DNA of 64,000 nucleotides, taken from positions 621,803-685,802 of the forward strand of contig ML996687.1 of NCBI GenBank assembly GCA_010356995.1, in the 5' to 3' direction. The translations under genes were made by a program, and so were the position numbers. This document shows, one piece after another, positions 38,882-63,586 of the stretch; position 1 is the first letter of the stretch, and each line of letters opens with the position of its first letter. The notes below the pieces were generated by a model that ran no database searches, had not been told where the DNA came from, and saw nothing but the letters and a program-made list of their open reading frames with translations. This DNA comes from Trichodelitschia bisporula. Lineage: Eukaryota.

Positions 38882-41800
38882 ATGCCTTGGCGACCTCTCC
38901 CCCGGATCGCATTCGGAGTATGCACCTATCCCTTCCAGCCTTCGTCGCCCGCAGACCTTCCCCTCGAGATCGGAGATGAGTTGTACATAATCGAGCAAGG
39001 CGGCCAGGACGGCCAGTGGTACCGCGGGTACCTGGTTGCGCCGCCCTCACTACTTGCAGGCCTCACCTCGGTGAAGGGTCAGACACTCGAGGCACGCGTA
39101 TTCTCTGGCATATTTCCGCGCGTCTGCGTCGAGGTGCGCGAGGTTCTAGGCGATGACCGGTCCCGTGGCGGACGTCAGGATGAACTGCCGGTCCAGGGCG
39201 TCAATGGCCGTAACGGGAGCCACCCCGACGTGCAGCAAACCAACGGCATCCCTACACCAACATCTCCGTCTCCAACAGCTGGCGTCAATGGAACAAACGG
39301 CACCGCCAAAACTGAACTGACAGTCGACCCACCTGCCATTCCCGTGTCTCGGTCTATGAAGCCCGAAAATCTGCGTCTCGGCAGCCGTGTCTCGCGCCAG
39401 ACGGTCCGCTCGGAAGCTTCACAACTCGTCCTCCCATTGTCCCCCATGTCTGTCACCGAGCGAGACCCTAGTGCGCCGCGCCCACCAGCTCCTGTTCCCA
39501 TGCTTAAAATCGGCGACGAGACTCCTACGTCTGCACAGGAGCCACTAGTCGACGAGATCGCATCATGCCTGCGGGAATGGCACTCGACCAAGCTCCACGA
39601 GCTCCTCCTCGCGCGTCGATACACCATCCTCGACAAGATGTCCAATCTCGTACAGCGCCTTGATACCTCTCGCCGACAGCTACTTCACAAAGTCCTTACT
39701 GACCAGGAACTGCGCGGACTGCGGGAACAAACTGTCTGGGACCTCGTCAACGGCAATAAGGTCCTGTCTGGCGAGGTCATTGTGAGGAACCCGGCTCAGC
39801 GGGGCAGGATACTCACCGGCGACGACTCTGCCATTGAAGTCACCAAGCTGCAGTCTATGATGAGCTTGCTTGCCGAGCGGCCTGTCACGCCTCCCGACGA
39901 GCACGTTGCGCACCACCTTCTCGTCTCCATCCCACATGCTTTGGGGGAGCTCTCCGCTCCGAAGACCATTGCCGTCCATCTGTTCAGCAAAATGCCTGGC
40001 CTGCCCATCCAGTCGGTTTCTGAAGTCCACGCCATCAACGTTTCTGCCCAAACCGGCAACGCACCGGAGGGCTCCATGAAGACGCTCTTTGTAGATCTAG
40101 GCGCCACAGACCTGGGCGAGGGAGCAGGAGCGGGCTCACAGCTCTACGTTGCATTCAAGGTCATCGTCAACGAGCCTCTGCGTAGCCCTGTTGTTCACTC
40201 TGTACAATCGCTGCCGCGCGAAAGCACATCAAGCCGTGACGGTGCCAGTTTCAATGTCAACCAGGGCGGCAGCATGAAGGGTGGTAGGCGGAGTCTGATG
40301 TGGGGCAGTCCTCGTGGGCGCAAAGATTCGGAGAATGGTCCGCGTCCCTCGGGGGATCATCTGAGGGAGAATGAGAGCCCTCAGGCTCGTATGGATCAGC
40401 GCAATGCGTCAACTGGCACTCGGCCCCTAACCAGGGATGCGAAGACCGTCAAGCGGACCGTGGCGGCTGGAGTCATGCGTGTAGACCACATCCTCAAACA
40501 GGACCTGGAGGTTGAGCAAGAGATCAGCTTGTGGACCCCAACTTCTATGCCGACGGACGAACGTGCGGACCAAGACAACGCTTGGGATGAGCTGGTAAGT
40601 GAGCTGCTGGCAACCTCGAGTGGCGACTACCGCAAGTACACATTCCCCAAGCCGCTCAAGGTATTCGTCAAAGGCTTCGAAGATCCGGATGCCGAGTCCC
40701 TCATTCGCAAGACTCCGACGCTATTGCAAAACATCCCTCAGACGAGGCGGATAGGCTTCTCGGGCGCTCCGAGCAAGCCCAGGAGCGATATTTACCTTAC
40801 ACTCTCCGAGCCGTGCCTTCCACGCCACGCCTTTATGGCCCATCCAAAATCAGGAACCGTACCACTCGGGACACAGCAGGGTCTCGCCAACCTCCAGCTT
40901 ACACTCGAAGTGCGGAGATCGACAGGGCAGCGTATCGAGAACTGCATCTTCCCGTCGTGTAACAGCCAGGGCCACACGGCTTGGAGAACAACGGCTGTCG
41001 AACGTGGTGAGCCGTGGAATCTTACCATCCGCCTGGCCATCCCCCCTGAAGATGTGCCTGGCTCGCACATTGTCATGAGCATAGCTGATCTCCCTGGTTT
41101 TCCCTTCGGCTTATGCTGGATGCCGCTGTGGAACGATGGAGCCTTTATCCAGGATGGCGAACATGTTCTGACGCTCTACCAGTATGACGAATATACCTCG
41201 AGCGTCATCTCTGGCCGTGGAGCGTATCTGGGTCTGCCTTGGGGCGCCAAAAAGCGCGATGAGCAGTCTGGTGGTCCTATGGCTGCCCTGCATATCCGCA
41301 CATTCCTCTGCAGCACCAAGTACTCGCAAGATCCCGACCTTTTGGGACTTTTGAAATGGCAAGAACAGCCTCCCGGCACGCTGCCCAGTCTGCTTCGGCG
41401 GTTTGTCTTCGTTCCCGAGATTGAGATCGTCAAGCTGCTCAACGAAGTCTTGGATGCGCTGTTCGAGATCCTGGTGGATTGCGCTGGCAGCGCAGAGTAT
41501 GAGAACCTCGTCTTTGCCGACTTGGTCTTTGTACTCAGCATCACCTATGACCGCCGTTTCAAGCTTGCGCCAATCGTGGATACCTATGCCGACACGCGAT
41601 TCAAGTACCCGGCTGCCACAGCCTGCCTCATCCGCAGCTTCGGGCGGCTGCTCTCGAATCCTACGGACCAAGAGACTTCGCGCAAACTGCGTGCGACCTT
41701 CAAAGTCGCGGCACATATTATCAAATTCATCTCCGCCGGTCGCCGGGTCCAGGAGGCACAGAGCACGGACGGAGGTGTGACGAAGCGGAAATCTGCATTT

Positions 41801-44800
41801 CTCAAGGATATCAACGACATTTTCCAAGCTTTGCAGAGCTTGATGCTGAATCCCGCGCCAATTCTGGTCGGTACGAAGACCCTGCTTGTGCAACACTTCC
41901 ACACCTGGTTGTCCGAATTGTCTCCTATCATGAATCCGGAAGACATTCTTCGTGTCACCGTCGATTTTGTGGATTCTTGCGCGAATGCGCAGGGGAAGCT
42001 GATTCTGTACAAACTCGTCTTGATCATTCACCTTGTGGGTATCTCTGCCCTCAAGCTGCCAGAGACAAAGCGCCAGCTTCGCACCAACACTGTGCGGTGG
42101 CTGGCGCCCTACTGGGGCCGGACCGAAAATGTTACCGAGCAGTGGCGGGAGCAAGTTCGGCTTTGCTGTTCTGTTGTCGCCTCTCAGATCAACGAGCTCG
42201 GCCAGGAAGCCTGCGAGTACATTCCCAAGTTGGTTGACTCGTACCGCGCTATTCAGGCAGTGCCACGCCCGCTGAAGAAGTCACTATCACTCCTCTTCCC
42301 GACCTCCTACCCCTTCCACTCTCGTCCCATCGACATTGAAACCACTGAGTTCGACGAACCCCTCATCGAAATCGCTGCTGTGTTAGCCGCTATCACGAGC
42401 TTACCTACCACAATACATCTGGATATGCCACAAGATGATCTCGCGGACTTTCTGTTCAGCGCTCTCCAGGTGTATATTTCCATACTGAATGGCGAGGCTT
42501 TTCCGCATTCCTGGCTTTCAGTCCACATCTTCCACCACAAGTCGACTATGCGGAGTCTTGAGAAGCTGTCAAGCATCCTCATCGACTCCTTCCTTCCGCA
42601 CCCCGACGAAGCCGATCAGTTCAACACCGAGCTTTGGCGTACCTTTTTCGAGGCTTTGCTCAAGCTTGTCGGCAGCAACGCGCTCGCACTTGAGACTTTC
42701 CCGGAACAGAAGCGAAGAGCTGTGTGGAAGATTGCTGGCGACGTGAGGGAGCTTGGGGCAGATCTCCTTCGCCGCAGCTGGGACGCCATCGGCTGGGAAA
42801 CGAGCCCTGAAGACAAGACTCAATACGGTCTAGAAAAGCTGGGCGGCTACCAGGTCCAGTACGTGCCGGCACTTGTCGGGCCGATCGTTGAATTGTGCCT
42901 GAGCGTCCACGAGGGCCTGCGGAGTGTTGCGATCCAAGTGCTTCAGACGATGATCATTAGCGAGTGGACTCTGAGCCAGGATCTCTCCCTCGTGCAAGCT
43001 GAAATCATCGACTGCTTAGATCAGCTGTTCAAGCAAAAGACGCAAAGCGAAAGCATGCTGCAGAAGGTCTTCATTGGGGAGCTAGTCGACCTATTCGAGC
43101 CCCTCGTACGGCAACCCGACGATCCTCTGTTCGTCGCAGTCAAGAATCTCGTCGCGACAATCGAGGAGCTATTGGATCTGCTTGTTGCTGTACACAGCAC
43201 TGATGGCAGCGGAGAAGCCTTCCACATTATGGACACGCTCCATTTGATGGAATTCCTCAAAGACATGCAGAAGGAGGACATCTTCATCCGCTACGTCCAT
43301 CAACTTGCGCAGCTCCAGGCTGATGCGAAGAACTACACTGAAGCTGGTCTTGCCCTCCGCCTGCATGCAGATCTTTATGACTGGGACCCTGCAACCGTCC
43401 TGGAGCCGCTGAGCGAGCCGCACTTCAGCACGCAGACAGCGTTTGAACGCAAAGAGCAGCTCTACTTCCAGATGATAAAGTACTACGAGGATGGCCAGTC
43501 GTGGGACAACGCTCTCGGGAGCTACATGGAGCTGGCAGATCAGTACGAGCACAACGTGTTCGACTTCGCGAAGCTTGCGCGCGCCCAGCGGTCCATGGCA
43601 ACAATTTACGAGTCCATCAGCAGGGGTCAACGCGATAACCCAAGGTATTTTCGGGTAGTCTACAAGGGTTTCGGATTTCCCATCAGCCTACGCGATAAGC
43701 AGTTCATCTTCCAGGGACTGCCGACTGATCGCCTTTCCACCTTTACCGATCGTCTGCAGCAGCAGCATCCCTCAGCCCAGGTCATGACTTCCGGTGCTTC
43801 AGATGAAGATCTGGAAGGGCAATACATCTATGTGTACGCCGTCAGCCCGCAGAAGGACCTCATGCACCCGATCTACCAGCGCTCCAAGGTCTCGCAATCA
43901 GTCCGCGACTACTACCTCCTCTCCCGGCCGAGCAACTTCACCTCTTCCTCCCGCCGCAAGGCCAGCGACGCCGGAATGAAAGAGCAAACCGTCGAAAAGA
44001 CCGTCTACACAACCGCAGAGCCCTTCCCCACTATCCTCCGTCGCAGCGAAATCGTCGCCGTCGGCACCATGACCCTCTCACCCGTGCAAACCGCCATCGA
44101 GCGCACCACCCGCAAGACAGCCGAGCTCCTAGCGCAGGAGAAGAAGATCATCGACGGTGAGGACACGGCCTTCTCCGCCCTCACCGATACCCTGACCCTC
44201 TCCGTCGACCCCGACTCCCCCGCCAGCGTCGCCATCTACCGCGACCTCCTCCGCCACGGCCAACCCACGCGGCCCTCGTCATACGAAGACGAGCCCGTGA
44301 AGGAAGACGACTCTCCGCCCGACCCCCTTGACAACGCGCTCAAGATCGCGCTGCTAGACTACGCCATCGCCGTCCGCCGCTGTCTAACGCACTACTCGCG
44401 CCCCGCGCACCAAGCTACGCGCGTTGATCTCCAGCAGCGTAAGCCTTTCGTTCCCCCATATCTCTCGTATATACTAACTGACCCAGGCTTCGAACTAACC
44501 TTCGCCCCCGAACTCGCCGCCCTAACTGCCGCCACCCAACCCACAACCAACCCCCGCTCCCCCAGCTCCACATCCTGGATGTCGCCCGGCGCAGCGCACA
44601 CGCCCGAGCGCCCCGGCAGTCCGTCCAAGCAGGACAGTCCCGTACAGGCGCTCGATGCGGCGGCGGCGAAGCGGCACAATCACAGGCTTAGCTTTACGAT
44701 CTTTAAGCGTGGGAGTACGCATGAGCGACGGAACGGGGCGGGCGCGTTTGAGAACGGGGGTACGGGGAATGAGCGCGTGAGCACGGAGCATGGGCGCTCG

Positions 44801-45127
44801 GCTTCGCTGGCTCAAGGGAATGGGAAGGATGCGACGGTGGGCGCGCAGTCTGCGAGCGGTGCACCGAGGGTCGAGCTCCAGTACAGCCCGAGCCGGTCGA
44901 GCACGAGCGGGATGAATCTGGATGGCGCGAGCGATATGATCTCTAGGCCGTCGACGCGGAATAGTGAGGGGCAGGGGAGTGGGGGGGATGATGGGATGGG
45001 CGGGAGTATGAGGAGTAAGGTCGGGAGTGTGAGGAAGAGGTTTAGTATGTTGGGGATTGGGAAGAAGCCGAGTAAGAGTAGTGTGCGGAGTCGAGGGGGG
45101 GTTGGGGAGAGTGTGGTTGAGGAGTGA
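38882..45127 (+). CDS. DOCK180-family Rac/Cdc42 GEF (SH3, C2/DHR-1, DHR-2)
   Basis: N-terminal SH3 (DLPLEIGDELYI...WYRGY...GIFP), FLCSTKYSQD, and DHR-2 motifs (YIRY-like FIRYVHQL, EAGLAL.LHA, YFRVVYKG.GFP, FPTILRRSEI). Probable in-frame intron 44439-44486. Confidence 0.93.
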   Translation: MPWRPLPRIAFGVCTYPFQPSSPADLPLEIGDELYIIEQGGQDGQWYRGYLVAPPSLLAGLTSVKGQTLEARVFSGIFPRVCVEVREVLGDDRSRGGRQDELPVQGVNGRNGSHPDVQQTNGIPTPTSPSPTAGVNGTNGTAKTELTVDPPAIPVSRSMKPENLRLGSRVSRQTVRSEASQLVLPLSPMSVTERDPSAPRPPAPVPMLKIGDETPTSAQEPLVDEIASCLREWHSTKLHELLLARRYTILDKMSNLVQRLDTSRRQLLHKVLTDQELRGLREQTVWDLVNGNKVLSGEVIVRNPAQRGRILTGDDSAIEVTKLQSMMSLLAERPVTPPDEHVAHHLLVSIPHALGELSAPKTIAVHLFSKMPGLPIQSVSEVHAINVSAQTGNAPEGSMKTLFVDLGATDLGEGAGAGSQLYVAFKVIVNEPLRSPVVHSVQSLPRESTSSRDGASFNVNQGGSMKGGRRSLMWGSPRGRKDSENGPRPSGDHLRENESPQARMDQRNASTGTRPLTRDAKTVKRTVAAGVMRVDHILKQDLEVEQEISLWTPTSMPTDERADQDNAWDELVSELLATSSGDYRKYTFPKPLKVFVKGFEDPDAESLIRKTPTLLQNIPQTRRIGFSGAPSKPRSDIYLTLSEPCLPRHAFMAHPKSGTVPLGTQQGLANLQLTLEVRRSTGQRIENCIFPSCNSQGHTAWRTTAVERGEPWNLTIRLAIPPEDVPGSHIVMSIADLPGFPFGLCWMPLWNDGAFIQDGEHVLTLYQYDEYTSSVISGRGAYLGLPWGAKKRDEQSGGPMAALHIRTFLCSTKYSQDPDLLGLLKWQEQPPGTLPSLLRRFVFVPEIEIVKLLNEVLDALFEILVDCAGSAEYENLVFADLVFVLSITYDRRFKLAPIVDTYADTRFKYPAATACLIRSFGRLLSNPTDQETSRKLRATFKVAAHIIKFISAGRRVQEAQSTDGGVTKRKSAFLKDINDIFQALQSLMLNPAPILVGTKTLLVQHFHTWLSELSPIMNPEDILRVTVDFVDSCANAQGKLILYKLVLIIHLVGISALKLPETKRQLRTNTVRWLAPYWGRTENVTEQWREQVRLCCSVVASQINELGQEACEYIPKLVDSYRAIQAVPRPLKKSLSLLFPTSYPFHSRPIDIETTEFDEPLIEIAAVLAAITSLPTTIHLDMPQDDLADFLFSALQVYISILNGEAFPHSWLSVHIFHHKSTMRSLEKLSSILIDSFLPHPDEADQFNTELWRTFFEALLKLVGSNALALETFPEQKRRAVWKIAGDVRELGADLLRRSWDAIGWETSPEDKTQYGLEKLGGYQVQYVPALVGPIVELCLSVHEGLRSVAIQVLQTMIISEWTLSQDLSLVQAEIIDCLDQLFKQKTQSESMLQKVFIGELVDLFEPLVRQPDDPLFVAVKNLVATIEELLDLLVAVHSTDGSGEAFHIMDTLHLMEFLKDMQKEDIFIRYVHQLAQLQADAKNYTEAGLALRLHADLYDWDPATVLEPLSEPHFSTQTAFERKEQLYFQMIKYYEDGQSWDNALGSYMELADQYEHNVFDFAKLARAQRSMATIYESISRGQRDNPRYFRVVYKGFGFPISLRDKQFIFQGLPTDRLSTFTDRLQQQHPSAQVMTSGASDEDLEGQYIYVYAVSPQKDLMHPIYQRSKVSQSVRDYYLLSRPSNFTSSSRRKASDAGMKEQTVEKTVYTTAEPFPTILRRSEIVAVGTMTLSPVQTAIERTTRKTAELLAQEKKIIDGEDTAFSALTDTLTLSVDPDSPASVAIYRDLLRHGQPTRPSSYEDEPVKEDDSPPDPLDNALKIALLDYAIAVRRCLTHYSRPAHQATRVDLQQRKPFVPPYLSYILTDPGFELTFAPELAALTAATQPTTNPRSPSSTSWMSPGAAHTPERPGSPSKQDSPVQALDAAAAKRHNHRLSFTIFKRGSTHERRNGAGAFENGGTGNERVSTEHGRSASLAQGNGKDATVGAQSASGAPRVELQYSPSRSSTSGMNLDGASDMISRPSTRNSEGQGSGGDDGMGGSMRSKVGSVRKRFSMLGIGKKPSKSSVRSRGGVGESVVEE

Positions 45128-46260
45128 GGGGGTTTTTACGTTGTGCTTCGTGGAGGAGGGGGTTTTAATGGAGGGCGCAGGGGACTCCTGGTGGGTTGCG
45201 GCGCCCGGTGTATGCTGAGGTGGGGGAGTAGGGAGTTGTGTTCGTGTGTGCGAGGCCGGGGGTGTTTTCGTGGTGCGTCTGCGCGGCTTACGACATGCAG
45301 AAGAGAAAATGCAGTGCAGAGTGTGCCTCGCGGTTTGTATGCCGTGGAACCTATGGACGTGGTGGTACGATACTTGGGGATGGGGTTGCGCTCATTGTTC
45401 TTTATTTTTTCCTTGGTGCTCGTTGAGGAGGGTCTGCTTGATTGATATACCCGGCTTTCATTTTTCTTGTCGCTTTTCTTGGGTGTGTGTTGGAGGCGTG
45501 GTACGTCAGTCTTTTGGGTTGTTAGGGTGTTGGGTGGATTATTATACTAGTTATGGGGCTGTGAGTTGGGCGTGTTTGATATTTATGTTGATGTTGTTGG
45601 GGGCGGTAGAGCGTAATGGATATGGGTGTTGGGTTGAATGCTGCTTCGCGTGGAGTGATCATATGTATGTCGTCGATGATTTTGGTGACCGCTATCATCG
45701 CGGTCATCGTTCTAGCTCGGCCGTCGTGGGAGGTTCCGCTCGCATTGATGGTGGCCCGTCGTTGAGTATGGTGAAATCCAATGTCTTTTGCTATTCAAAG
45801 GCAGAGACTCTACGATATAGATCCCGCTTTGGACGTCGACGACATTGGCACAGAGGAAGGCTGTCGTGAAGATCCCTTGATTCGTTGAGCGAGGTTCAGG
45901 ACGGCAGAGAATGAAGTGACGATAAGAAACCTGCTCAACCCGTCAACCCACCACATAAAATCACCAGCATGAAAGTACAAAGTCCCTAGAACCATGAATT
46001 ATCCTTCCTCGCCACACGTATATACATCCCCACCAGCCATCCATCCATCATCCAGTCTAATCCTTAACCATTGCTATGGTAAGCCTATGTGCATCATCAT
46101 CCACGCCAAAAGCGGCACCATGATCTAAACCCCACAAAAGGTATTAAAGCAAAAAAGCGAAGGGCAGCATCTCGCCCTCTACCCAAAAAACTCCAACCCA
46201 AAAGCCGCATGCATGTACGCTGTTTTCTAACTTTCATCCAAAATACTCACCGGACCTTGC

Positions 46261-48449
46261 TCAAGCACTAACAGCCTGAATATCAACCGCAAGCTCCGTA
46301 ACGCTAAACGTCACATTCTTCGCCGCAGAATACGCCTCAGACCCAAAGGCAATGTAGCCAAGCCACGCCGTGGTCTGCGGCCCACCATTCGCTTGCAGCT
46401 TGTTCACCAATCCCGAGATTTCCCCCACGAAGCGCGTTGTGTTCTGATCGGCCACCCACGTGAAGACCTTCTGGCCGAAGGCATTGGCGCCGGCGTAGAG
46501 GTCGCTGGACGACGCGTCAGCATTGTCTGTCTTGTACGAGATACGATGCAAGAGCCGCATGATGCGGGGAGTGCAATTGAGATGCGAGACAACGGAAGTC
46601 CGATATGCGCAGCTGCTGTGCGCGGCTACGGGCGCAGGGATACGGCGGGTAGGAAAAGTGGGGGAAGGAGTTCTTACAAGGTGGTCCCGTTTACGGTGTG
46701 GTGGTCGACCGCGCCGGCGGGCAGGCCGATAGGCTGGGTGGCCGCGCCAAACGCACCGAACCAGACCATGACTTCGTAGTCCGATTTCGTGGTGTCGTCC
46801 GAGACGGCCTTATCGGCCGCCAAGAACATGTCTATGCAGACGTTGGCGTTCATCTCTGCATTTCCGATCAGCATGCATATTCCCTCAGACACGCACAAAG
46901 GTCACGAGATGTCGGGCACAAAAACTCACCGGCGTCTACCAGCCCCGAAGTATTCGTGGAGGTGGGCTTGTCGTTGCCGGCGCCATAGTTCCACGCCACA
47001 TCGAAGTTCAAGGCGCTGAGATTCGAGAGTCGGATCGGGATGTCGGTGGTGTTGAGCTTGGCGTTCGGGAAGGCGTGCACGGGCTGATCGACTATCCGCG
47101 AAAGAAAAAGAGGAAAGTCAGCACGCGGCGCATTGGGCACCCGCGGGTTTCAGCCTCGCAAAAAAGACGGAACTCCGCAAACCGGGTCGGCACTTACCAG
47201 GTCCCATAGGATACTGCCACGTCGCGGCAAAAGTCGCTGCAGCCTTTGACTTGGAATCCGCATTTGGCTTTGACGTGACCTGCTTTCGTCAGTTTTGCGT
47301 TCTTCTTCAGCCGCCGCAGGGTAAATCGGCTTGCGTCAACATTGACGCAGGTGGGGTTGAGACGCACGTTCATGCACATGGACGAAGCTTCAGAGGCCGA
47401 CAAGCCCCACTGATTGGGGTTAACTGCGGGAAAACGTTAGCGTCAAGACTCGATAAGCGGTGCAGCCAAGATATCGGATATGCAGGAAGAAACAAAACGA
47501 AAAAGCTGGCAGGGCCTAACCGGGGACGGCTCCGGTCTGCAAAGTGAAGGATGGGCCTTGGGAACAGGGCCATCAGTCGTTCGCCGTTCGGCTGAATCGT
47601 GTGGATGCCCGAAGGTTTGTTGGCCGAAACACAGTTTGATGGGGTGGCGCAGCAGTGATCCACCCCGACCCGTCATCCTGTGTCGTCATGCCGAAGTAAT
47701 TTTAACCGTGTGCCGTGTGAAGGCAAATCCGGATTGCCATTCGGCGATGATCGAAAAGAGCTGCGCCGGCAAAGGGAATTGAACAGTCCAGATTCGGGTT
47801 GGTGTGGCCCAAAATCGTGGAGGGGCAATCGAGTCGAACGCTATGCGCGCTGGCATGGGGCTAATGCCACATGAGCGACACACAAGCGTTGTCCACTCCC
47901 ACTCCCACAAGGGCCCCGCCACCCCAACAACCGGGGCTCCCCGGAGCAACCGGATCTTGGCGTTTGTTGACGGTGTCCAAGTGGCATTGGATCCTGGTCG
48001 CTTCAATCCCCGCTTGCCGCGCTTGGCTTGGTGATCTGACTGGCTGGCCCCTGCATGAAACCGTCGAAACAAGGAACCTCAATGTCCGGTGGGGGTGGCC
48101 GCAAAACACGCGTCGTCGACTCGGGATCCGTGATAGAAAATGAGACGAACAAAAAAATAAAAGAGAGCAAGTCGATTGGAGAGGAGAAAAAATGAACATC
48201 CGAGGGAAAATCTGGAAAAGGGAGAATCGCGCCGCGGAGAGACTCACGAACATATCGTCCCGGGTCAGGCGTGATACCGTAGGACTTTTGGCAGTAGGTA
48301 GTGGTTTGCGGTGCGTTCGGCCCGTATCCGCCGGTGTTGGGGAAGCCGCCGTGGAAGATGTGTTGAGACTCGATTCCTAGGTACACGCCGACCGTGAGAG
48401 CGACGGGGAATGCGAGCAAGACGCCGCTGAGAATCGACAGCAGCCACAT
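46261..48449 (-). CDS. Glycoside hydrolase family 12 endoglucanase with N-terminal signal/anchor (~307 aa, 6 exons)
   Basis: Exons 48449-48248, 47423-47368, 47279-47198, 47091-46930, 46855-46678 and 46504-46261 splice in frame. GH12 motifs LNPNQWG, VHAFPNA, NVCIDMF, YEVMVW (nucleophile Glu) and FGSEAY (acid/base Glu). Confidence 0.88.
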
Positions 48450-50741
48450 GGTGCGTATGAAGCAGCGGTTACAGATAACGAGGGACTAGTCGAGTGAAAA
48501 AAGGCCAGCAGACGAGAGGAATGGCGATATAATTGCTGAACGCCAGACGTAAAACGACAAAATCGGACGTCGACGGTCAGGTCCTTCTTGTATCAGGATG
48601 CGGTTTTGCGACTTCAAAAACGAGTGTGTTTGGAGGTGAGAGGGACGTGTTGAGATGGCGGTTGCTGGGGATGCGGAGGCTTGGAGAACAAAGTTGCGTA
48701 TAAGGCGGCAAAGACGGTGCTGATCGGTTGAAATGGTCTCGCAAAAGTTGCAGTGGGAGCGAGACGAACAGCCATCGTCTTTGCACAAAGACGAGTCGGC
48801 GCCTGCTTCCTTGCCGAAAAAGGATATGGCGACGGGGGTAGTGGCAAAAGGCGTTTGTGTCTGGGGGGGTTCGGGTTACCGGTTTCTGTTTTTAAACAAG
48901 ACCACTGGCTTCGCATGCGGCGTGGCTGGCGTGGCTGTGCTTATCATCCGAATCCCCGAGCCTGTCATTGGGGGAGGAGCTCATATTACACAGGATTCGA
49001 CCCTTTAAGCTATTAAACGGTAGAGGGAGGTCCGTAATGCGTGGCATGATGACACAGGCACCTCGCACTGCACAGGATTCTAGCGCCTCAAGGTATGAGA
49101 TGCCTGTGTGAAGGTATCTTGGATGAACAGTCCGATAAGATAGGCGGTGATCAGATCAGAGAGAGCGAGGGAAGCTCGAGTAGGAAGGTGAGAGCGAAGC
49201 CGGCGAGGAGAGGCCGGCAGGCAGGATCAAAGACAGCCTTTCGCCGATGCAGCAGAAAGTCAAGCACACCGCGCCAAAAGCGCCAGAACTACCACCAAGA
49301 GCCAGTGAACTTCTTTTCCTTTGCCAAGGGAAGACGATAACGTTAGAGACAGGCGTCGTAACTGGCGAGCTGGGAAGAGTGACGCAGCGGCGTTGCTTGC
49401 GTGGTTTCCCCCGAGTCTGCTCCGGAGCAACTCGAATAGGGAAAGAGGAATATGCACGACTACAGAAAGTTGCAGTAGCGAACAGCAGTAATCCGTACAG
49501 CAGTACGTATCGAGTGCATTGAGCGACATTGAGCACATGGAGCGTATCAAGCTTCTCGTTACACCTTCCCTCTTTCCTCTCGGCCTATGATCCTTCTTTC
49601 ACTCTTATGAATAGAGACGGCTGACCCCTAATCCCAGTATCAAAATTATCCGTCACCCCGGGACCCACCCCGAGCCTTGTGGATATCCGTTGTCCTCATT
49701 GCCTTCAACTCCACGCAAACGAAGAGGGTCCTCCGCCCATATCCGCCTCGCATCTCCGCCACTCAGTGCCACTGGTGCAACGCGAGATCCCCACAGCGGC
49801 AAATCATTATTTCGCCTACTGTGGGTTATTCTGGAGCTTGATGGTTAGAGAGAGGAGAACGACTTGGTAAAAGTCACTATCAGCGTCGCTAGTGAGAGAA
49901 GCCAAAACACCCGCTACCCACACACGGCCTGCCGTAAACATGGCCCCCAGCCACTCTTTCAGCCTAGCGTGCATGCCACGGCTCTTCCCCAGTCCAACGC
50001 CTTGAACCCAAAAGCCTTGTTCCCGTCCATTTTCCCATGCACCAGCCATAGCACCGCGTCGTCAGTGTCGTGTGCGTTATGCAAGTAGGTAGCACCCTAA
50101 CACCATCTCACTTTCCCAAGTCTCAACCACACAAACAGAACAATGAAGGAAACCACCTACCCACCATCCCCCCAGGCCCCCCCCCCCCCCCCCCCCGATA
50201 GCCAAAGGGCGTCCTTATCCCGCCCCCTTTGAATGGAAGCTTGATTTGATTAGCCCTCTGAGATCCTCCCGTCCTGTAAAATGTGATCGCTTTTTGCCGC
50301 GCCTCTTTTTGCCATAACCCGTTGCGCGCCAGCCCCGTCCAGCCAGCGCAAGCTTCTCTTGGATACCTACCCACCTCCACCATCTCCTGGCTAAACGCCC
50401 TTTTGCACGTCTTTGACCACACGCACTGCATACGTCTTAATTGTGGAGAGACACCCGCTCGCTGCATCCCATCGCAACCGGAAGTCACCGTTCCCACCTA
50501 CTCTCGCTCGGACCGTTGCTTCAGCCCGCTCACTCCCACTTGTAACTCTGAACAGAAGGAAGCTCCGTAAACAACCTGGCACAACAACCGCTCGCTTCCG
50601 TTCAAATCCCCAGCATCTTTCGTTTTATAGCAATGTCGATTTGCTGAATCGGCATCGGTCCCCCATCGACTTTCGTTCAATATAACCACGCGCCTTCACT
50701 ATCCAAGCTTCACCACGACACCCCCCTGAAGCTTGCCAACC

Positions 50742-53212
50742 ATGGACGGCTTCGACCAGATCAACCAAACTCCACGGTCTGGCCAGAACAATACCTACAC
50801 ACCCTACCAAACTCCGCACTCGTCATCAAGGGTCTCGTTCATCGACAAGGACGACAGCATAGATATAACCCAGGAACAGAGAGCTCGAGGTCATCAGATC
50901 TATGGGGAGATATTAACTCCCAATGCTGCACAGCGTCCGCCGTTCAACTTTTCTCGCAGCGGTGGAAGCAGAACGCTCGCCGAATCCCGCTCAGAAAGCC
51001 CTCCTGGAACTCCTTACGCGTCGGCAGGGACTCAATGGTACAACGGGCGACCAGGCAGCGAGGCCACGTTGGTGTCGTATGCCGGAACCCCCTCTCCTCT
51101 GGTGAGCACCTCCGACGTCGTATCGACAATGTTTTGGCTGACACAGACCCAGCGGAGTGCACAAGATCTCCGGGCACTGATTCCGAATGGCAACTACAAT
51201 GCATCGTCAATTAACCTAGATCAGGGATGGGGGCAGGACTGTTCCATCCTCCAGCTCGATGAGCGGGACGACCACGCCCACATGGCACCATGGAAACGTC
51301 GTATCTACTACACCGTCCCGTTTCTAGCCATCGCTTCGATTGGTACGTACTGGGCGTACTTCGTGCTTCGCATCCTGTTCGTCATCTCAGCACAGAGGAA
51401 AAACGGACAGTCATTCCCCATGGCATGGGTGTTTATCGGTGTCGAAGTTGCCGTCGCCATCCCGATCATGCTGCACTCTTTCTGGACCCTCTTTGGCATC
51501 AAGAAGCGCAACCGCCCGCAGTTCCGTCTACAAGGTGAAGACTTGCCGACTGTCGACGTCCTGATCACCTGCTGCAAGGAAGAGGTGGATCTCATTGTGG
51601 ATACAACCCGCGCAGCTTGTGAAGTCGACTACCCGCAGGACCGGTTTCGCGTGGTGGTGCTGGACGACGGCGGCGACGATGTGCTGAGGTTGGCGCTTCA
51701 GGCCCTGCAAAAGGAATACCCCAACCTGGTTTATCGCAGCCGCGAGAAGATCCCTGGCGTTCCGCACCACTTCAAGGCCGGCAATCTCAACTATGGCCTG
51801 GACGAAGTGCACTCCATGGCCGGAGGAGCTTCGCAGTTTGTCGCCGCGCTGGACGCCGATATGATTCCCGAACCGCACTGGCTCCGTGCCATCTTGCCGC
51901 ATCTGCTCATCGATGAGAAGATGGCCCTTGCTTGTCCGCCTCAGGTATGATGCGATAGTGGATTTTCGTAGTTCTCTTACTGACGTCGACAGCTGTTCTA
52001 CAATGTACCACCTGGTGACCCACTTGCCCAAAGTCTGGATTTCTTCGTGCACGTATCGGAACCGGTTAAGGATGCGCTCGGTGTAGCGTGGTGTACAGGG
52101 TCCGGTTATGTGTGTCGCCGCGCAGCGCTCGATCAGATTGGCTGTTTTCCACTCGGCTCATTGGCTGAGGATGTTGCGACTTCCACTCTCATGCTGGGCA
52201 AGGGCTGGAAGACAGCCTACATCCACGAGCCTCTGCAATTTGGCACCGTTCCCGACAGTTTCAGCAGTCACTTGAAGCAGCGGACGCGATGGGTGCGCTC
52301 ATTCTCTCTATTCTCGTATTTTGCTCAACTAACCCTTCGCAGGCAATTGGCACAGTCGACACGACGTTCAAGCTCAACTTCTCGCTGTGGGGCAAGGACG
52401 TCGCGAAGATGGGCTTCTTCCAGCGCTTCTGCGGCTTCGTCTACGGCGTTTCGGCTCTCTTCAACATCTTCCTCGCGCTCTCCGTCTACGCGCTGCCCAT
52501 TGTGCTTATTTCCGGCAAGCCGCTGATCGCTTACGCCAATAATGAGCAGCTCCGCTGGCTAATCCGCGCCTGCTTTATCGCACTAATCACTAATCGCATC
52601 TTCGAGTTCGTCCTCACGCTCCCGTCAGGCTATGCCGTCGGTCAGCGCGGCGCCCGTGCCCATCTCTGGATGGCGCCGTACATCGCCAACTCCGTCTTCC
52701 GCTCGTTCTTCCTGCCAACGTGGCTCGGCGGCAAGCTCGCCAGCTTCAAGCCAACTGGCTCGCTGAAATCGGACATTAACGAGCGCGATCCCTCGACGCG
52801 CGCCCCGCTATTCCGCCGCTTCTTCACCATCGTCTTTAATTACCTGGCGTGGTACCACATCGCATTCGTGTACTTCACCCTCTCGGCTGTTACCTTGTCG
52901 ACTTGCCGGTGCATCGCGGAGCAGCGCACGACAAACGACCGCGGTATGTGTCTTCTGACGCACGCTTTCTGGCCGCCGATTTCTTGGATCATGGTGATCA
53001 GCGCATTCTGGATTCCCATCTCCTACGCGATCAACCCGCCTGACTGCCCGCCGCGTGAGGATCTCCTCGTGCGCGAGAAGAACGGTGTCGCCCATCCGTC
53101 GGAGAAGGCCAAGAAGACGGGCTGGTCCGGACAGACCGCCATCTTCGAGCTCGAGTACACGCTCACCTCGCTTTTCACATGCTTTGTTTTTGCGCTTGCC
53201 TTCCTCTACTAA
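50742..53212 (+). CDS. Processive GT2 glycosyltransferase, cellulose-synthase-like (CelA/Tft1-type beta-glucan synthase candidate, ~775 aa)
   Basis: Full D,D,D,QxxRW signature (VLDDG, KAGNLN, DADM, LAEDV, KQRTRW), two N-terminal and several C-terminal TM helices. Introns 51102-51146, 51945-51992 and 52293-52342. Confidence 0.93.
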
Positions 53213-56200
53213 GGTTCTCTGCGGCCTCGAGCCGGGTCGTCTGCCGCCAACGGGTGCGGTCGCGCCCTTGCTCGGTGCGTTTGTTTTCTACAGCATTGAC
53301 GGAGTTTTTGTCCGGCTGCCACCTTTTCCGCCGCGGAAACCTTGCATTCTTTGAATATACACCTGTGCTAAGGGGAGCGACATATACAGAGCAGCAGCAT
53401 TTGCATATAATTCTTGGGAGATACACCCCCTTTGCATATTTCTCCAGCAAGGGAGCCTGATAGACACGCATGGGGGAACGAACTTTATCATTGTTTCCGG
53501 CCTCTGGGGGGAACTGCGGTTCCGAATTGGTTGTTAGCCGCCATTGTACATACGCAACCGATGTGTACCGTTTGGTTTCTTCGATTGTGGGAGTTCCCTT
53601 TCCCTTGTGGGGGAGGGACAGTGCGGCTTAGCGTAATGTTTTGTGTTGGTTCGTTTCACGCGGAGGATGTTGCGACGATGGATTGTCGGAGATCGGAGGG
53701 AAGGGACGATGGTAGTTGAGGGGGGCCTGAACGCCCGTCAGCCTCCTTTGCTGAGGGCGTTTGTGGCGCGGAACGGCGAAAGTTGGATAGTCAGGCCGCG
53801 TAATAGATGGGCGCTTAGGAGTCAGTCGGCTTGGAAAGGGAATAATGAGAATAGATATCCATTGCACGATTCGTGCCTTGCATCGCTGAGATCGGTGTTT
53901 GATGTTGCGTGTCTAACGGGTTTGGGTGCGCTTGGCGGATTGGCATGCGATTTCAAGGTTCGTCGGTTCCGCTCACCAACGCCGTTCGTCAGCTTCTTCA
54001 TCTCTCAATTTCGCTCGCATACTCCTGTTTCTATGCTGACCTAGCAGTTGTGGTGTCAAGACTTTGAGAACACTTCTAGCTATCGCGCTACAACATTTCC
54101 CCTCCGGTCGTCGACTTCGTCCTCTACTCGTACTCATTAACAGCAGACATACCGAACCCTGACAGCATGTCGCTACGCTCAATCTCCATACGATGATGCG
54201 CCGTGGAAGCGCTTCAAAGGTTCTGCGCCGGTGCCGGAACTTAGGAATCTTGCTTCGGCCCGCAAATGGCACTGAAGCTTGGAAATTCGGTGTCCTTCGC
54301 AAGCACTAGTGCAATCGACTACGAGGTACACCAGCGTCAAGGCTTCTCAAGGAGTCATGAAGGCCCATCTCAAGTTCTCCGACGCCGGCCAAATATCTTG
54401 CCCCAGTCTTCTCGGAGATATCCGCCCTCATCAACATCCTTAATCTCAGCCACTGCCGACGTGTAAAAGCTTAGCCATCACAACATGGGAGGCTTCCACC
54501 TGGTCCATGAAATGGAACAATTCGAGAAGTAATGGCAATGCGGAAGATTGTATGAGGCGCAGCTTCATTGGCAATATTACCCGACGACCATCATCTACAG
54601 TGTGCTGCCAAAGGATCGGGGCGAGAAATGAGCAACGTAATATACTGTTGATCACGGAGGCTGAGTATTCTCTGATCGCCGGGCTATGCAAAAGTTTACA
54701 AGCACCTTGCAACCACGATGCTCTCCTGGGATAGAGCCGTATATCGAGTTTGGATTCGACCTGTCGCTTACCTTTGCATTGCAGCCCATAGCATTTAGTC
54801 TGATTCCCATTGCATAGCGGTTACATCTGCCACGTAAGCCAGAATAGTCACAACGTAGATCGCATCCTCCCGATGACGTTCTGCAAGGCGAGGTATCACG
54901 CCTGGGACCCGCATCCTAAAGGCATAACTCGCCACTCCCAACTTGGCCAACATTCGGCATACTCACATCACACATTTATAGGGATACGATACGAACAAGC
55001 ACGAAACACGCATGTGCCAAGAGATGATTGCTTGTTTGTTTGTTTACTGATGATAAAAACATTTCCGAACACTGTTCAAAGCCAAGCTAAAGCCAAACTT
55101 GCATTATTACTGTAATATTACAATTAATACTTTATGCCAAGCCTAACTTCTGCACTATGGTTGGTCAACCTCTGTCCTGGTGTCTGTAAATGAACGGTAA
55201 TTTAAGTATTCAATCTTAATGCCTTAGGCTGACAGACCTTCAAACACGGGCCATTTTCAGCTAGTGCTTCTTATAACGACTACGTTTGTTGCTTGAAGCC
55301 CGTGTTCATTGTTTTAACCGCATCCCTACACATTCAAGCCTTCCAACCTCAAAACTCATAAACCACCACTTCCAACCTCGCCACCTTCCCCTTTCCCCCA
55401 GTCCCGCACCCGATCTCACCATCCCTGCCCAGTCCCACCATGCAAGGCACGCCCGCCCAGGCGACCAACCAGGAACCCCAGCCGCACCAGCGGGGGCACC
55501 ACAGCAGCCACGCCAAAACGGCGCGACCGGGATGCCATGCCGCGCGCCCCCCCACCCTTGACCCCGTCATCGCCAACCCGAGCGGCGCCGGTCCCACATG
55601 GTGCAACCGCATTCTGGGCCCGACTCAATTAGCCGGCCTGGTTTAAGAGGAGCTAGTTGGTTAGGGAGGTGCTGATCTGGTTCGTTGGCCGCGAGGAAAT
55701 GTTTAGGGGGATAGGGGATCTTGCTAGGGATGGAGTTGGGTATGTGGGAAAAGGGAGGGGGAGAGGATGGAAATTAGGGAAGTGGTGAAGCATTGCACGG
55801 CGGAGATTCGCCGGCTTTTTTGGCGTGTGCTTGCGAGGGTTGGGTTTTGCCTGTCCACGGATACAGTCAGCGCGTCGGGCCTGCGCGGTGCGGGTCGGGT
55901 ACGGGGCGGTACGGTAGCGCGGAGTGAGAGAAGGAGCTCCAAGGGAGGCTCCGTAGGAGACATCTCCGCTGTCCGGGGTTGGTGGAAGGAGAAGGAAAGC
56001 CACCGACGTCGTGCGTGGGGGCAGGGATTGGGATGGTGAGATAGTGGGACTGGTGGGGGTTGGTGCTGGGAGGTGAAACTTGTTGTGCTGTGGTTGCGGC
56101 GGAGAGGGCTCGTTAAGGGTGGGGCTGGGTTGGGGTTGGTGATGGAGGGGAATGGGAATGGGTTGGGGTGCGGGGAGGTTGGAGACGTGGGTTGGGAGTG

Positions 56201-60360: not shown

Positions 60361-63300
60361 ATGGCTGCTCGCAGCCAACCTTTTTCTCTCAGGCGCTCTG
60401 CGAATCCGCGATTTGCTGTAAGAAAGCCGACACCATTGTCTATGTAGCAGCGCTAACCTGCATAGCTTTCAAACGTTCGCGAAGAGAGCTGGGAGAGTGT
60501 TAATGTAGGCTCTTCTCTGCGCACATTTTCCCGTCTAACTGATATCCAGGCGCAAAGCGCCAGCATGGGGCCAGAATCGCCTCTATTCCCTCGCTCTACC
60601 ACCGGCGACGATCCTGTCCGCTCGATCCAGAATGTCGCAGACCGTGTTGTACTTGAGATGGAGGCCTTTTGTGTACTGGTCGACCAGTGGCGGGAACGCC
60701 TGAAGACGCTTCCGAAAGAAGACTCCCAAGACGCGCGCTACGATGCTACGATTCAGCTTCTCGAGGAGCTCCACCAGATTGCTACCGTCAAGGCGTCCGA
60801 CTTGAAGGGCGAGCACCATGCTCGCAGCGGCGCATTCTCGAAGTCGTGGCTGGATCGGATACAACGTGTTGAAGATCGGGCGCTACGTGGATCCAGCGTA
60901 GCTACCAGTACCTGGGGAGATGGTACGGAGGTTGCGTCCTTGGATCCAGATAGCGACTTGGACAAATGGCAGGCGGAGGCAAACACATGGGAGCTTCTGC
61001 GCGCCATTGTCGACCTAGAGTTTCAGAAGCCCGATGAAGAGACCAAGGAGCAATATAGACGTGCCCGGCCTATAAACCAGTTCACTCCGGATGCCGAGCT
61101 CTGGACAACCTTCAATATCTGCGACGACTCTGCTCGTGAGAAGAAGGTCATTCTGGAGTGGCTGGAAAGATGCGCGAGGAACGGACAGACAGATTTCGAA
61201 TCCATCGTGGAGCGGCTGGAGGAGCGTGCTGGTGGCAGCGGAACCTGGTCGCACGGCTGGCTCCATACGCGCGAGAAGATCAAGCACAGCAAGCGGAATC
61301 AGTCCTTCGGCGCCTCTTTTTCCTTCAATACTATCGTGGCGCGGAACGATGCCGCGCAGAATCTCATTACGGAGCTGGACCCGGATGCTCCATCGCGCCA
61401 GGGCAAAAATCTCGACAAGCAAGACGAGCACTATGAGCGGTCCATGTGGCTCGCGCTCTACGAGGCACTACGTCGCGGCATGCCGTGGACAGAGATCCGC
61501 CAGTGGTGCACCGAGCGCAACGAAGGCTGGCGAGCAGCTAGTTTAGGCGTCGCGCAGGAACTGGACCGTGATAGCACGCGGCTCAATCTCTCTGGATCTT
61601 CGACTGGCGCACTTTGGCGGCGCATGTGCTATGCAGCTTCGCAAACCCAGTCCGCCGACAAATACGAGCGCGCCGTGTACGGGCTCCTCGCCGGAGACGT
61701 CAAGTCTGTCGAAGCCGTCGGCCACTCCTTTGATGATGCCTTGTACGCGCACTTCAACGCACTTCTGCTTCAGTCATTCGAGACCTGGTTGGAGGAGGAA
61801 TATCCAGACCGGTTTGAAGCCACAATGCTTCAGCAGTTCCCGCGCCCGATTCTCGTGTCGGATAGAGACGACGGCAAGTCTGACAGCATACGCGTTGTCA
61901 ACATACTTGTCAAGGATCCCAAAACGGCACAGGAGGCTCGGAAACCTCTGAAGGTGGTCCAGTCAAGCTTCCTAACTCACGACTTCGAGCTGCTTGCTGC
62001 ACAGGTTGGCCTGGCTCTTGCCATAAAGGCGCAACGTGAAGGCAAGGGCGCTCTCATTCCTGTTCCCCAGAACCCGGAGTTGCTTGATGACTTCTTTGTG
62101 CCCGTATCCGAAGACTGGGACGCCGTACGTGTGGTCGTACATGCATACATTGTGTACAAGGAGCTTGGCCTGCCGATCAAGCCCAGTCGGCAAGTCTACA
62201 TCGAGAACACGATCGCAGGATACATCGACTTCCTGCGTTCCATTGAGAAGTTTGAATTGATCCCGACGTACGCCACCTTCCTCCCGACCGAGCGGCAAGA
62301 GGAGGTCCTCGGTATTGTGCTTGTTGAGATGAAGGATGAAGCGAAGCAGTTGCAAATGGCTGAGCTTATCGGAGCCGCTGGAATAGAGATCGACTTGATT
62401 TTGTCGAATCAATACATCCACGCTGCGAGGATGCTGGGCATCAATCTAGAGGATGTCGAGTGCATCAAGCGCTTCCCCATCGTCGAGAATTCGGTTGGGC
62501 GGTGGGCGGGTGCCCGCATCTCAAGTACCTTTACGCTGCCTTCCAAGCTGCCTGAAGATGAGGAGCGCTTGGCTCGCAGTTTGGAGTGGTTCTTCAAAAT
62601 TCCCTCTTACTGGGATGCTACGTTCCTTGCCATGACATTCTCTTTGCGCCAACTTCTCTGTAAGTATCACCGTTTGCAAACTTTCTAGGCTAATTTTCCC
62701 AGGCACTGGCCGCTTCGCCGCTGCCCTCGCCGTCACCAAGCGCATCCCCTTCAAACAGCTCTCCAAGGCGAAGTCCGCACCATACCTCGGCCGCGAAATG
62801 GATATCTTCGAAGAAACTGCACCTGCCGAGGACACCCTCCGTCGGTCCACCCGCCATGGTTCGCGACCCACGACACCCTCGGGCGAACCCCCGTCGAAGC
62901 GCGAACGCTTCCTCCTCCGCATGCTCAAGGCGCAGAGCCGCACGTGTCTCGAGCTGCAGCAACTGTGCCTCGCCATCGAGGCGCTGGCCAAGTGGCGCGA
63001 GTTCGAAGACCAGATTGCGCAGCTGAAGGAGGAGGATCTGACGACTAAAGACTTCCGGCGTCGCGTGCAGGAGGAGCTGGAAACCCTGTCTACGGCCATG
63101 GAGCCTCTTCTGCACGACCTCCTGACGCACATCGAAGATGGTTTGTTTTCCATGCCGATGTTTTGGCCCCTCCTAACAACCGCAGAATCCGAAGTCGAGC
63201 TCTACGCCTCTATCCGCCAGGCGTACCTGCCCGACGCTATCCTCGCGTATAATGGCGCCATCACCTTCGCCGCCGACTTCACTGGCCCGGAGACGATGCT

Positions 63301-63586
63301 TAAGTCGCTCGCGCTTACGAACCTGCTCGCGGCGGAGGAAAATGCGCAGCTGACGAATGCGTTCTTGAGCGCGGGTCGGATGACGGATCTCGTGTCCTCG
63401 CTCGCGCTGAGCAGCCAACAGTTGCTCCGTGTCAACCAGCGCATGGCGATGGCGGAGGATATGCTGGAGAAAGAGCGTGTGGCGCAGGGCAAGACGCCGC
63501 GTATACGGCGAAAGAAAAGTGGATTGAAGAAGCGGGGGTGGATGGGGGAGTCGCTGGATATCTGGGATCCGAATAAGGCGAGCTAG
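60361..63586 (+). CDS. NUP84: Nucleoporin Nup84/Nup107
   Basis: Motifs WQAEANTWELL, ILEWLE, GWLHTREKIK, ELDPDAPSRQ, WRAASL, LWRRMC and YERAVYGLLAG. Introns 60418-60465, 60505-60549, 62660-62702 and 63141-63185. Confidence 0.93.

Follow-up and report, generated by a model that had tools for sequence, protein, structure and literature searches.

Bacteria and plants both provide known examples of a glucan synthase that works with its own dedicated endoglucanase. In bacteria, BcsZ is a soluble periplasmic enzyme of glycoside hydrolase family 8 (GH8) that is encoded in an operon with the synthase BcsA, and CslA-GlxA-CslZ of Streptomyces is a comparable arrangement. In plants, the synthase CesA works with KORRIGAN, a type II membrane-anchored endo-beta-1,4-glucanase of family GH9 that faces the wall and has an inverting mechanism and an alpha/alpha-barrel fold; to our knowledge, the CesA and KORRIGAN genes are not neighbours in plants. 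The closest described fungal synthases are Tft1 of Aspergillus fumigatus and CelA (AN8444) of A. nidulans, members of glycosyltransferase family 2 (GT2). Here we analyse a 64,000-nucleotide (nt) stretch of contig ML996687.1 of Trichodelitschia bisporula, a dothideomycete of the order Phaeotrichales (the whole stretch is called the window), in which a GT2 gene of the same clade as Tft1 and CelA, with the same Pfam domains and motifs, stands head to head with a gene for a GH12 glucanase that carries a putative membrane anchor. Taken as a whole, the evidence is best explained by a conserved two-gene synthase-glucanase module of filamentous ascomycetes, a reading to which we give a probability of roughly 0.65. 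What is new here is the glycoside hydrolase family, the combination of a tether with a divergent promoter, and the fungal setting. No description of a GH12 partner of a fungal synthase was found in the literature searched by full text (bioRxiv supplements were outside its reach): the preprint on AfTFT1, the celA paper and the D. teres paper contain “GH12” zero times, and Samar et al. contains “family 12” zero times.

The locus can be set against each of these systems in turn. Like BcsA-BcsZ, it links a synthase genetically to a dedicated glucanase, and by sequence BcsA is the nearest relative of the fungal GT2 with a solved structure; the difference is that in the fungus the glucanase is a GH12, tethered to the membrane and made from a divergent transcript of its own. 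The Pfam matches for the GT2 included neither a PilZ domain nor a BcsB-type partner. Like CesA-KORRIGAN, it joins a processive GT2 to a membrane-anchored endoglucanase whose catalytic domain would lie on the wall side (the fungal topology is a prediction), but the enzyme belongs to GH12 (retaining, beta-jelly-roll) instead of GH9, and in fungi the two genes are divergently transcribed and tightly linked. The resemblance to CesA-KORRIGAN is one of analogy, not homology; with a partner from GH12 and not from GH8 or GH9, the locus is an analogue of the bacterial and plant systems and not a member of either. The secreted GH12 enzymes (Cel12A/EG3, XEG, XEG1, 7ee2) share the fold, the catalytic motifs and PF01670 with the protein described here, whereas this clade has about 85–100 extra N-terminal residues, only 23–28% identity to them, and the linkage to GT2. 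A second GH12 candidate of T. reesei (77284) was placed in a homology cluster separate from EG3, according to a T. reesei re-annotation.

Both genes occupy the positions given in the preliminary description of this DNA, with the GH12 stop codon starting at base 46261 and the GT2 stop codon ending at base 53212. The gene models draw on two public runs (X1 and X2, from one sample and one study) whose contigs are spliced across the region and hence derive from RNA; such contigs do not reveal the strand of the transcript. The main features, with lengths of proteins in amino acids (aa), are as follows.

46261..48449, minus strand: GH12 gene, six exons, 307 aa; five RNA contig joints (X1, X2), an open spliced translation containing the database protein P0001, and PF01670
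48449-48248, 47423-47368, 47279-47198, 47091-46930, 46855-46678 and 46504-46261, minus strand: the GH12 exons, the last including the stop codon
48366..48449, minus strand: hydrophobic N-terminal segment, GH12 codons 1-28, uncharged, read as a type II signal anchor
47424..48247, minus strand: GH12 intron 1, 824 nt, between the anchor-and-linker exon and the catalytic part; joint 47423->48248, ends CT..AC
46773..46775, minus strand: codon of Glu195, predicted nucleophile (YEVMVW), aligning to E-[LI]-M-[IV]-W of 7ee2 and 4npr
46336..46338, minus strand: codon of Glu283, predicted acid/base (FGSEA), aligning to the G-T-E motif of 7ee2 and 4npr
48450..50741, no strand: divergent spacer, 2,292 nt between the start codons; RNA contigs, no Pfam match in four long reading frames, no Rfam match
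50742..53212, plus strand: GT2 gene, four exons, 773 aa; three GT..AG RNA joints, an open spliced translation, Pfam matches and trees
50742-51101, 51153-51944, 51993-52292 and 52343-53212, plus strand: the GT2 exons, the last including the stop codon
52278..52292, plus strand: QRTRW (the QxxRW motif), the last five codons of exon 3; orthologue P0345 aligns here to QriRW of E. coli BcsA, 7lby

The six-exon structure first proposed for the GH12 gene is borne out, since all five introns (46505-46677, 46856-46929, 47092-47197, 47280-47367 and 47424-48247, with CT..AC ends) are backed by RNA contig joints. The RNA-supported joint across intron 1 confirms that the hydrophobic first exon is joined to the catalytic part; the spliced joint has a depth of 1140 in X1 and 525 in X2, against 21 and 11 for an unspliced contig (47394-48277). 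An intron at the same place, just before the conserved NPNQW start of the catalytic part, is present in 14 of 17 related loci (57–517 nt), and in the remaining three the exact NPNQW motif is absent. This first intron is often long by fungal standards, reaching 824 nt in T. bisporula; it yielded no Pfam family in the two reading frames tested and no Rfam match. The 86-aa translation of the last GH12 exon is 100% identical to one database protein, P0001 (KAF2405084.1 of T. bisporula, named “concanavalin A-like lectin/glucanase”), whose 225 aa are identical to the C-terminal 225 aa of the 307-aa GH12. The deposited model begins at an internal Met in exon 2 and is without the anchor exon and the first 82 residues. 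For the GT2 gene, RNA contig joints place introns at 51102-51152, 51945-51992 and 52293-52342. One and the same sample contains the fully spliced mRNAs of both genes.

The linkage of the two genes recurs in other fungi. Metagenome loci (71) were retrieved by GT2 peptide patterns only, taken from an alignment of ten GT2 orthologues, and a GH12 gene was then sought in them by tblastn with proteins of the clade. It was found in 26 of the 71 loci, and in 26 of these 26 it lies upstream of the GT2 gene and on the opposite strand, 524–2961 nt from the start of the GT2 match. A tree of 62 loci and 15 references resolves a core clade that contains the window GT2, the A. fumigatus protein, all linked references, 23 loci with a GH12 and 9 without. 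The latter nine have at most 657 nt of upstream sequence and are hence uninformative, and every core-clade locus with at least 1.8 kb upstream carries a GH12. Nine loci with less than 60% of the region covered were left out of the tree (L018, L022, L024, L048, L050, L051, L055, L056 and L058). Three of these bear a GH12 (L024, L055 and L058, with 2.0–3.3 kb upstream); among the other six, five have at most 1.5 kb upstream, and the sixth, L048, has 8.9 kb upstream and an identity (53–57%) that resembles the sister clade, although it was not placed in the tree.

The linkage is also specific to this one GT2 clade. No GH12 was found in 22 loci of two sister clades, where the longest member of each of six clusters (at 95% identity) has 6.4–10 kb of upstream sequence, nor in 8 loci of distant paralogues. 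One 131-kb contig holds both a core GT2 with its GH12 (L008) and a sister-clade GT2 without one (L015), about 90 kb apart, so the sister clade is paralogous. Around paralogous GT2 genes, no glycoside hydrolase was detected by Pfam among 34 flanking open reading frames (ORFs) of at least 150 aa from 8 loci. Grouped at 95% GT2 identity, the GH12-bearing loci of the tree make up 16 clusters, and thus at least 16 distinct lineages, which by best match are chaetothyrialean-, leotiomycete-, eurotialean- and dothideomycete-like (an assignment by similarity only). The flanking ORFs of representative loci match unrelated families (PQ-loop, Hus1, PIG-O, GET4, photolyase, MFS, sulfatase), and no third conserved gene recurs as a neighbour among 121 flanking ORFs of 15 GH12-bearing loci compared by Pfam. 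Because the flanks differ at every locus, the pair has been kept together while its surroundings were reshuffled. This linkage amid scrambled flanks is the strongest argument for selection on the linkage itself.

Annotated genomes give a second, independent view of neighbourhood. With the Beauveria orthologue P0092 as query, 375 proteins matched at E up to 1e-60, and the best 120 of the 375 were used; locus tags and GenBank accessions of GH12 and GT2 proteins were then matched by hand, giving 32 assembly pairs. Consecutive numbers indicate neighbourhood, not orientation. The numbers are consecutive in 21 of the 32 pairs and differ by 2 in five and by 3 in one. The 21 comprise eleven assemblies of the Colletotrichum acutatum complex, C. 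orbiculare, C. trifolii, Niveomyces insectorum, two Sporothrix schenckii, S. brasiliensis, Phialemonium thermophilum, Thermomyces dupontii, T. lanuginosus and Penicillium brasilianum. Examples (GH12/GT2) are:

VTK73DRAFT_6692/6691: Phialemonium
VTN31DRAFT_1207/1206 and VTN49DRAFT_5886/5885: Thermomyces
ERS99624/99623: Sporothrix schenckii
OAA54359/54360: Niveomyces
TDZ17908/17907: Colletotrichum orbiculare
OOQ86666/86665: Penicillium brasilianum

Loss of the adjacency in other genomes had been named beforehand as one of three observations that could overturn the proposed pairing, and these two sets of counts, the one for neighbouring numbers and the other for head-to-head orientation, leave the proposal standing. 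P. brasilianum had at first looked like an exception, with its GT2 (P0351) on a different contig from the GH12, until a second copy (P0438) was found to adjoin the GH12 (OOQ86665/86666). The tree shows P0351 to be a recent paralogue: the GT2 was duplicated in Penicillium, and the GH12 stays with one copy. Niveomyces insectorum RCEF 264 (P0346 and P0031) is classified in the Hypocreales in NCBI taxonomy; its GT2 and its GH12 both group tightly with Sporothrix.

The spacer between the two genes could hold a shared promoter. It had been described as a gap of about 2.3 kb without a convincing gene; the length holds and no gene was recognised in it (the four longest reading frames gave zero Pfam matches, and Rfam gave zero matches at E up to 0.1 across 45900-53500), but the gap is not silent, being mostly covered by RNA. 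RNA contigs run upstream from GH12 exon 1 to 48853 in X2 or to 49300 and beyond in X1, those leading into the GT2 gene begin at 50256/50264, and a trough lies at about 49710-49963 (bin depth 2.68 and 0). Much of the spacer is therefore probably taken up by long 5′ leaders, with the gap of a shared promoter at that trough; the GT2 leader may be about 780 nt long and the untranscribed gap about 250 nt. Several details of the RNA coverage stand beside this. The X1 contig continuous with GH12 exon 1 (48248-49502) reaches about 850 nt upstream of the ATG and includes a 52-nt skip (49301-49352) with GC..AG ends on the plus strand, opposite in sense to the GH12 gene; it may represent either a long 5′ leader that contains an unusual intron or a transcript that is antisense or divergent. 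X1 also has a separate contig of high depth (757) in the bin 49964-50217, and a C-rich homopolymer tract at about 50174-50197 lies just 5′ of the starts of the GT2 contigs.

A shared bidirectional promoter raises the alternative that the arrangement serves timing only, with the GH12 acting on a different wall polymer or on one in the environment. Co-regulation alone can hold head-to-head pairs together, both mRNAs occur in one sample, and the enzymes structurally nearest to the GH12 are of mixed specificity (see below). Multiple observations argue the other way. First, the linkage outlasts all other synteny. Second, it is confined to one GT2 clade, and the paralogues have neither a GH12 nor any glycoside hydrolase in their long flanking ORFs. 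Third, the GH12 remained with one copy after the GT2 duplication in Penicillium. Finally, no shared promoter motif was found when 7- and 8-mers were counted in 17 spacers: the best, CTCCGTA, occurs in 11 of 17, and mononucleotide shuffles gave up to 12. We consider timing alone quite unlikely as the explanation, and that the two genes of the module are functionally coupled appears distinctly probable.

On the synthase side, the Pfam scores of the GT2 are 37.8 for PF00535 (cut-off 23.3), 50.2 for PF13632 (cut-off 27), and 31.4 and 34.7 for PF13641 (cut-off 27). The preliminary description had called this protein an intact processive GT2, and the features on which that rested are present: the motifs are DDG at 291-292, DxD at 354-356, ED at 443-444, QRTRW at 480-484 and an FxxTxx loop at 619, and Kyte-Doolittle segments (a crude method) lie on both sides of the catalytic domain, at about 179-233, 512-575, 696-714 and 754-772. 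What had to be revised was the gene model, which now has three introns and 773 aa; one of the introns (51102-51152), 51 nt long and in frame, had not been anticipated. The closest solved relatives of the orthologue P0345 are bacterial BcsA structures (7lby, 4hg6), with E-values of 2.6e-25 to 3.1e-23 and all motifs aligned. In a HMMER scan with GT2 exon 1, 1,928 relatives had E-values up to 1e-3, and for 197 the E-value was at most 1e-30. One GT2 with a long C-terminal extension (P0196) showed no additional Pfam domain.

Several comparisons bear on what this synthase makes. The window GT2 is 53–61% identical to ten orthologues over 620–770 aa and 56% identical to the A. fumigatus protein P0291 (738 aa) over 696 aa, against at most 41% for paralogues, and in the trees it groups with P0291 in the core clade. 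A. fumigatus has only one such protein, Tft1 (XP_748682/Afu3g03620), according to Samar et al., and P0291 is presumably that protein. AfTFT1 makes mixed-linkage glucan in K. phaffii, as a preprint reports (bioRxiv 10.64898/2026.09.17.752320). Judged from its sequence, the window GT2 probably makes beta-1,3;1,4-glucan as well.

The GH12 appears catalytically competent. Exon 5 alone scores 37.1 bits against PF01670 (cut-off 27), the full-length Venturia orthologue P0002 scores 82 bits over profile positions 2-207 of 207, and the window's own 225-aa protein, P0001, carries a precomputed PF01670 assignment. Both catalytic Glu motifs are retained, as had been claimed from the sequence: Glu195 and Glu283 align to their counterparts in 7ee2 and 4npr, and their columns are invariant in 35 of 35 clade members. 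The best match among PDB sequences is a GH12 beta-1,3-1,4-glucanase (7ee2, E 6.5e-14), and the next best is a xyloglucanase (4npr, E 2.4e-13); the title of 7ee2 is itself evidence for a GH12 acting on mixed-linkage glucan, and MoCel12A/B are cited in a preprint as GH12 enzymes active on that polymer. The fold was tested on the Thermomyces orthologue P0020 and not on the window protein. Its AF2 model (mean predicted local distance difference test, pLDDT, of 82.9, above 90 in the domain; predicted template modelling score, pTM, of 0.74) has a helix at 2-32, disorder at 41-59 and a confident GH12 jelly roll, and the PDB matches that Foldseek listed for it are GH12 by title, the fungal ones with TM-scores by target of 0.83–0.90 and identities of 23–28%.

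What sets this GH12 apart is its N-terminus. With P0001 as query, 87 of 366 candidate proteins matched at E up to 1e-3, the full-length ones being about 306–334 aa long (the search works through shared words, and absence from it is weak evidence). All 22 clade members fetched have an N-terminal extension that matches the window's exon 1, about 85–100 residues that include a membrane helix and a Cys pair, both conserved, as well as a linker. Identity within the clade is 40–57%, and a 35-member alignment has as invariant features a Pro within the hydrophobic segment, the Cys pair on either side of the point where the catalytic domain starts, PVHAFPN and both catalytic Glu. In the window protein a 19-residue Kyte-Doolittle window peaks at 2.21 over residues 1-28, and this protein and 16 of 16 homologues tested have exactly one such segment, at the N-terminus; an uncharged run of 18–26 residues is present in 34 of the 35 sequences, the 35th being truncated. 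In 19 of 19 representative loci the first-exon anchor lies between the GH12 core and the GT2 gene, with the initiator Met visible in 17.

To the preliminary description this N-terminus looked more like a signal anchor than a cleaved signal, and the conservation of the segment supports that reading. Mean pairwise identity is 48.8% in the anchor, close to the 51.6% of the catalytic core, and 37.5% in the linker. Conservation on a par with an active domain is not what one would expect of a cleaved signal peptide, and the segment, modelled as a 31-residue helix in P0020, is therefore read as a type II signal anchor. The window GH12 also has seven N-x-S/T sequons, a more positive flank on the N-terminal side of the helix, and the conserved Cys pair. 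The predicted arrangement is that of a type II membrane protein whose glycosylated ectodomain is tethered outside the cell.

The anchor bears on another alternative, namely that the GH12 is an ordinary plant-cell-wall endoglucanase or xyloglucanase whose position beside the GT2 gene is meaningless. Many clade members are named “xyloglucan-specific endo-beta-1,4-glucanase” in UniRef and NCBI, and the top Foldseek matches include xyloglucanases. The names are automatic, however, and identity to solved GH12s is 23–28% as against 40–57% within the clade; a conserved membrane anchor speaks against free secretion; and a head-to-head arrangement in 26 of 26 loci, from 16 lineages with unrelated flanks, is not chance. 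The clade also occurs in Exophiala, Cladophialophora, Rhinocladiella and Sporothrix, which are not known as plant degraders, the black yeasts among them being animal-associated. Taken together, these points make a plant-wall enzyme in an accidental position very improbable. That the pairing is kept in many distantly related fungi suggests instead that the GH12 acts on the fungus's own glucan.

We infer a mechanism for the module in which the topology, the GT2 product, the GH12 substrate and the effect of the one protein on the other would be as follows. The GT2 would be a BcsA-like processive beta-glucan synthase of the plasma membrane, in the Tft1/CelA clade, that uses UDP-glucose and extrudes a probable beta-1,3;1,4-glucan through its own membrane pore. 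The GH12, expressed from the same divergent promoter region, would combine a short N-terminus in the cytosol, bearing a single conserved helix, with a flexible linker rich in Gly/Ser and an extracellular, catalytically intact, retaining GH12 domain. Tethered beside the chain exit, it would most likely cut the nascent glucan, hydrolysing beta-1,4 bonds and so setting chain length or freeing chains for the wall, as BcsZ and KORRIGAN do for cellulose synthases. That the coupling consists of hydrolytic trimming or release specifically has, in our estimate, somewhat less than an even chance.

A number of points weigh against this picture of a conserved module and its mechanism, and they are gathered here. 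Five of the 32 annotated pairs are at least 17 numbers apart (four assemblies of C. scovillei and one of C. spinosum), though where contigs were listed both genes are on contigs of equal length. In A. nidulans, the neighbours of celA (AN8444) are a DUF3431 gene (AN8443) on one side and the gene for the Lap2 aminopeptidase (AN8445) on the other, not a GH12, whereas in the window and at least 16 other lineages the neighbour is the anchored GH12; and there is no Aspergillus among the 87 matches of the GH12 clade, a shared-word search in which absence is weak evidence. AN8443, a DUF3431 membrane protein, is reported to be 429-fold up in the celA deletion, with a marker artefact possible according to the authors (PMC5519750). 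AN8443 may be a different, Aspergillus-specific partner or such an artefact; no DUF3431 match was found among the long flanking ORFs of the window or of the other loci.

Other points concern the two proteins themselves. According to the AfTFT1 preprint (bioRxiv 10.64898/2026.09.17.752320), AfTFT1 alone suffices for mixed-linkage glucan in K. phaffii, so the GH12 is not needed for polymerisation and would be an accessory and not part of the polymerase. The window GT2 is 56% identical to the A. fumigatus protein, as against 70–96% within what the preprint calls the “AfTFT1-like” lineage, so its product could differ; and XP_748682 is not among the accessions listed for the P0291 cluster. The Foldseek neighbours of the GH12 mix xyloglucanases, cellulases and the beta-1,3-1,4-glucanase (at rank 26), and with such mixed specificities the substrate cannot be read from the fold. 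The expression evidence comes from one RNA sample with an unrecorded culture condition, and contig depths cannot rank the genes. Finally, the tie between the GH12 and GT2 proteins is our reading of genomic data.

Whether the tethered enzyme cuts or transfers is a separate matter. Transfer is compatible with the retaining, double-displacement mechanism of GH12 enzymes. The GH12 could thus be mainly a transglycosylase that moves the nascent GT2 product onto beta-1,3-glucan or another wall acceptor, building a covalent link. Both catalytic Glu are invariant, the tether would put the enzyme between the synthase exit and the wall, and the linkage evidence fits transfer as well as it fits hydrolysis; sequence, for its part, cannot separate the two. 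Against transfer, the characterised GH12 structures that were found are hydrolases by title, and A. nidulans is without an adjacent GH12, with no Aspergillus in the clade search, despite the wall-linked mixed-linkage glucan that has been described in A. fumigatus. On balance a mainly transglycosylating GH12 seems unlikely, though as a mechanism it is the chief alternative to hydrolysis. A bolder variant, which we also regard as doubtful, would make the GH12 a physical subunit of the synthase: its helix, with the invariant Pro and near-invariant Thr/Gly, would dock on the transmembrane domain of the GT2 while the retaining domain transfers chains to wall beta-1,3-glucan, a “make-and-attach” machine with an origin independent of the GH8 and GH9 partnerships.

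Two further observations concern the surroundings of the pair and its distribution. In the window, the pair is flanked by genes for a DOCK-type exchange factor and for Nup84/107:

38852-45127, plus strand: DOCK-family exchange factor, 2,091 aa, a single ORF (DOCK_N, C2, TPR, DHR-2)
60466-63586, plus strand: Nup84/Nup107 nucleoporin, two ORF pieces

In the 7 kb between the GT2 gene and the nucleoporin, none of the 10 long ORFs tested (124–195 aa) has a Pfam match. As to distribution, one metagenome locus (L072) is a 315-kb contig labelled as a deltaproteobacterial metagenome-assembled genome that carries an intron-bearing, fungal-type head-to-head pair, its GH12 64% identical to a Cadophora protein and its GT2 78% identical to a Coleophoma protein. 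The contig appears to be eukaryotic and to have been binned with bacterial sequences. L072 was the only candidate found for a prokaryotic relative of the GH12 clade, with patterns that are clade-specific and uninformative on distant prokaryotic GH12s.

The conserved two-gene module has consequences for annotation and for the biology of fungal glucan. The “xyloglucan-specific endoglucanase” labels on members of this clade are corrected, as is the deposited T. bisporula model that is without the anchor exon. How fungal mixed-linkage glucan is processed and attached after synthesis is an open question, and other proteins may influence the abundance, localisation or structure of AfTFT1 glucan, as the preprint notes (bioRxiv 10.64898/2026.09.17.752320). 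A GH12 that stays fixed beside the synthase gene while synteny is lost is an obvious first candidate for such an accessory protein. If the coupling is true, this would be a third, independently evolved pairing of a synthase with an endoglucanase, placing GH12 beside the GH8 of bacteria and the GH9 of plants.

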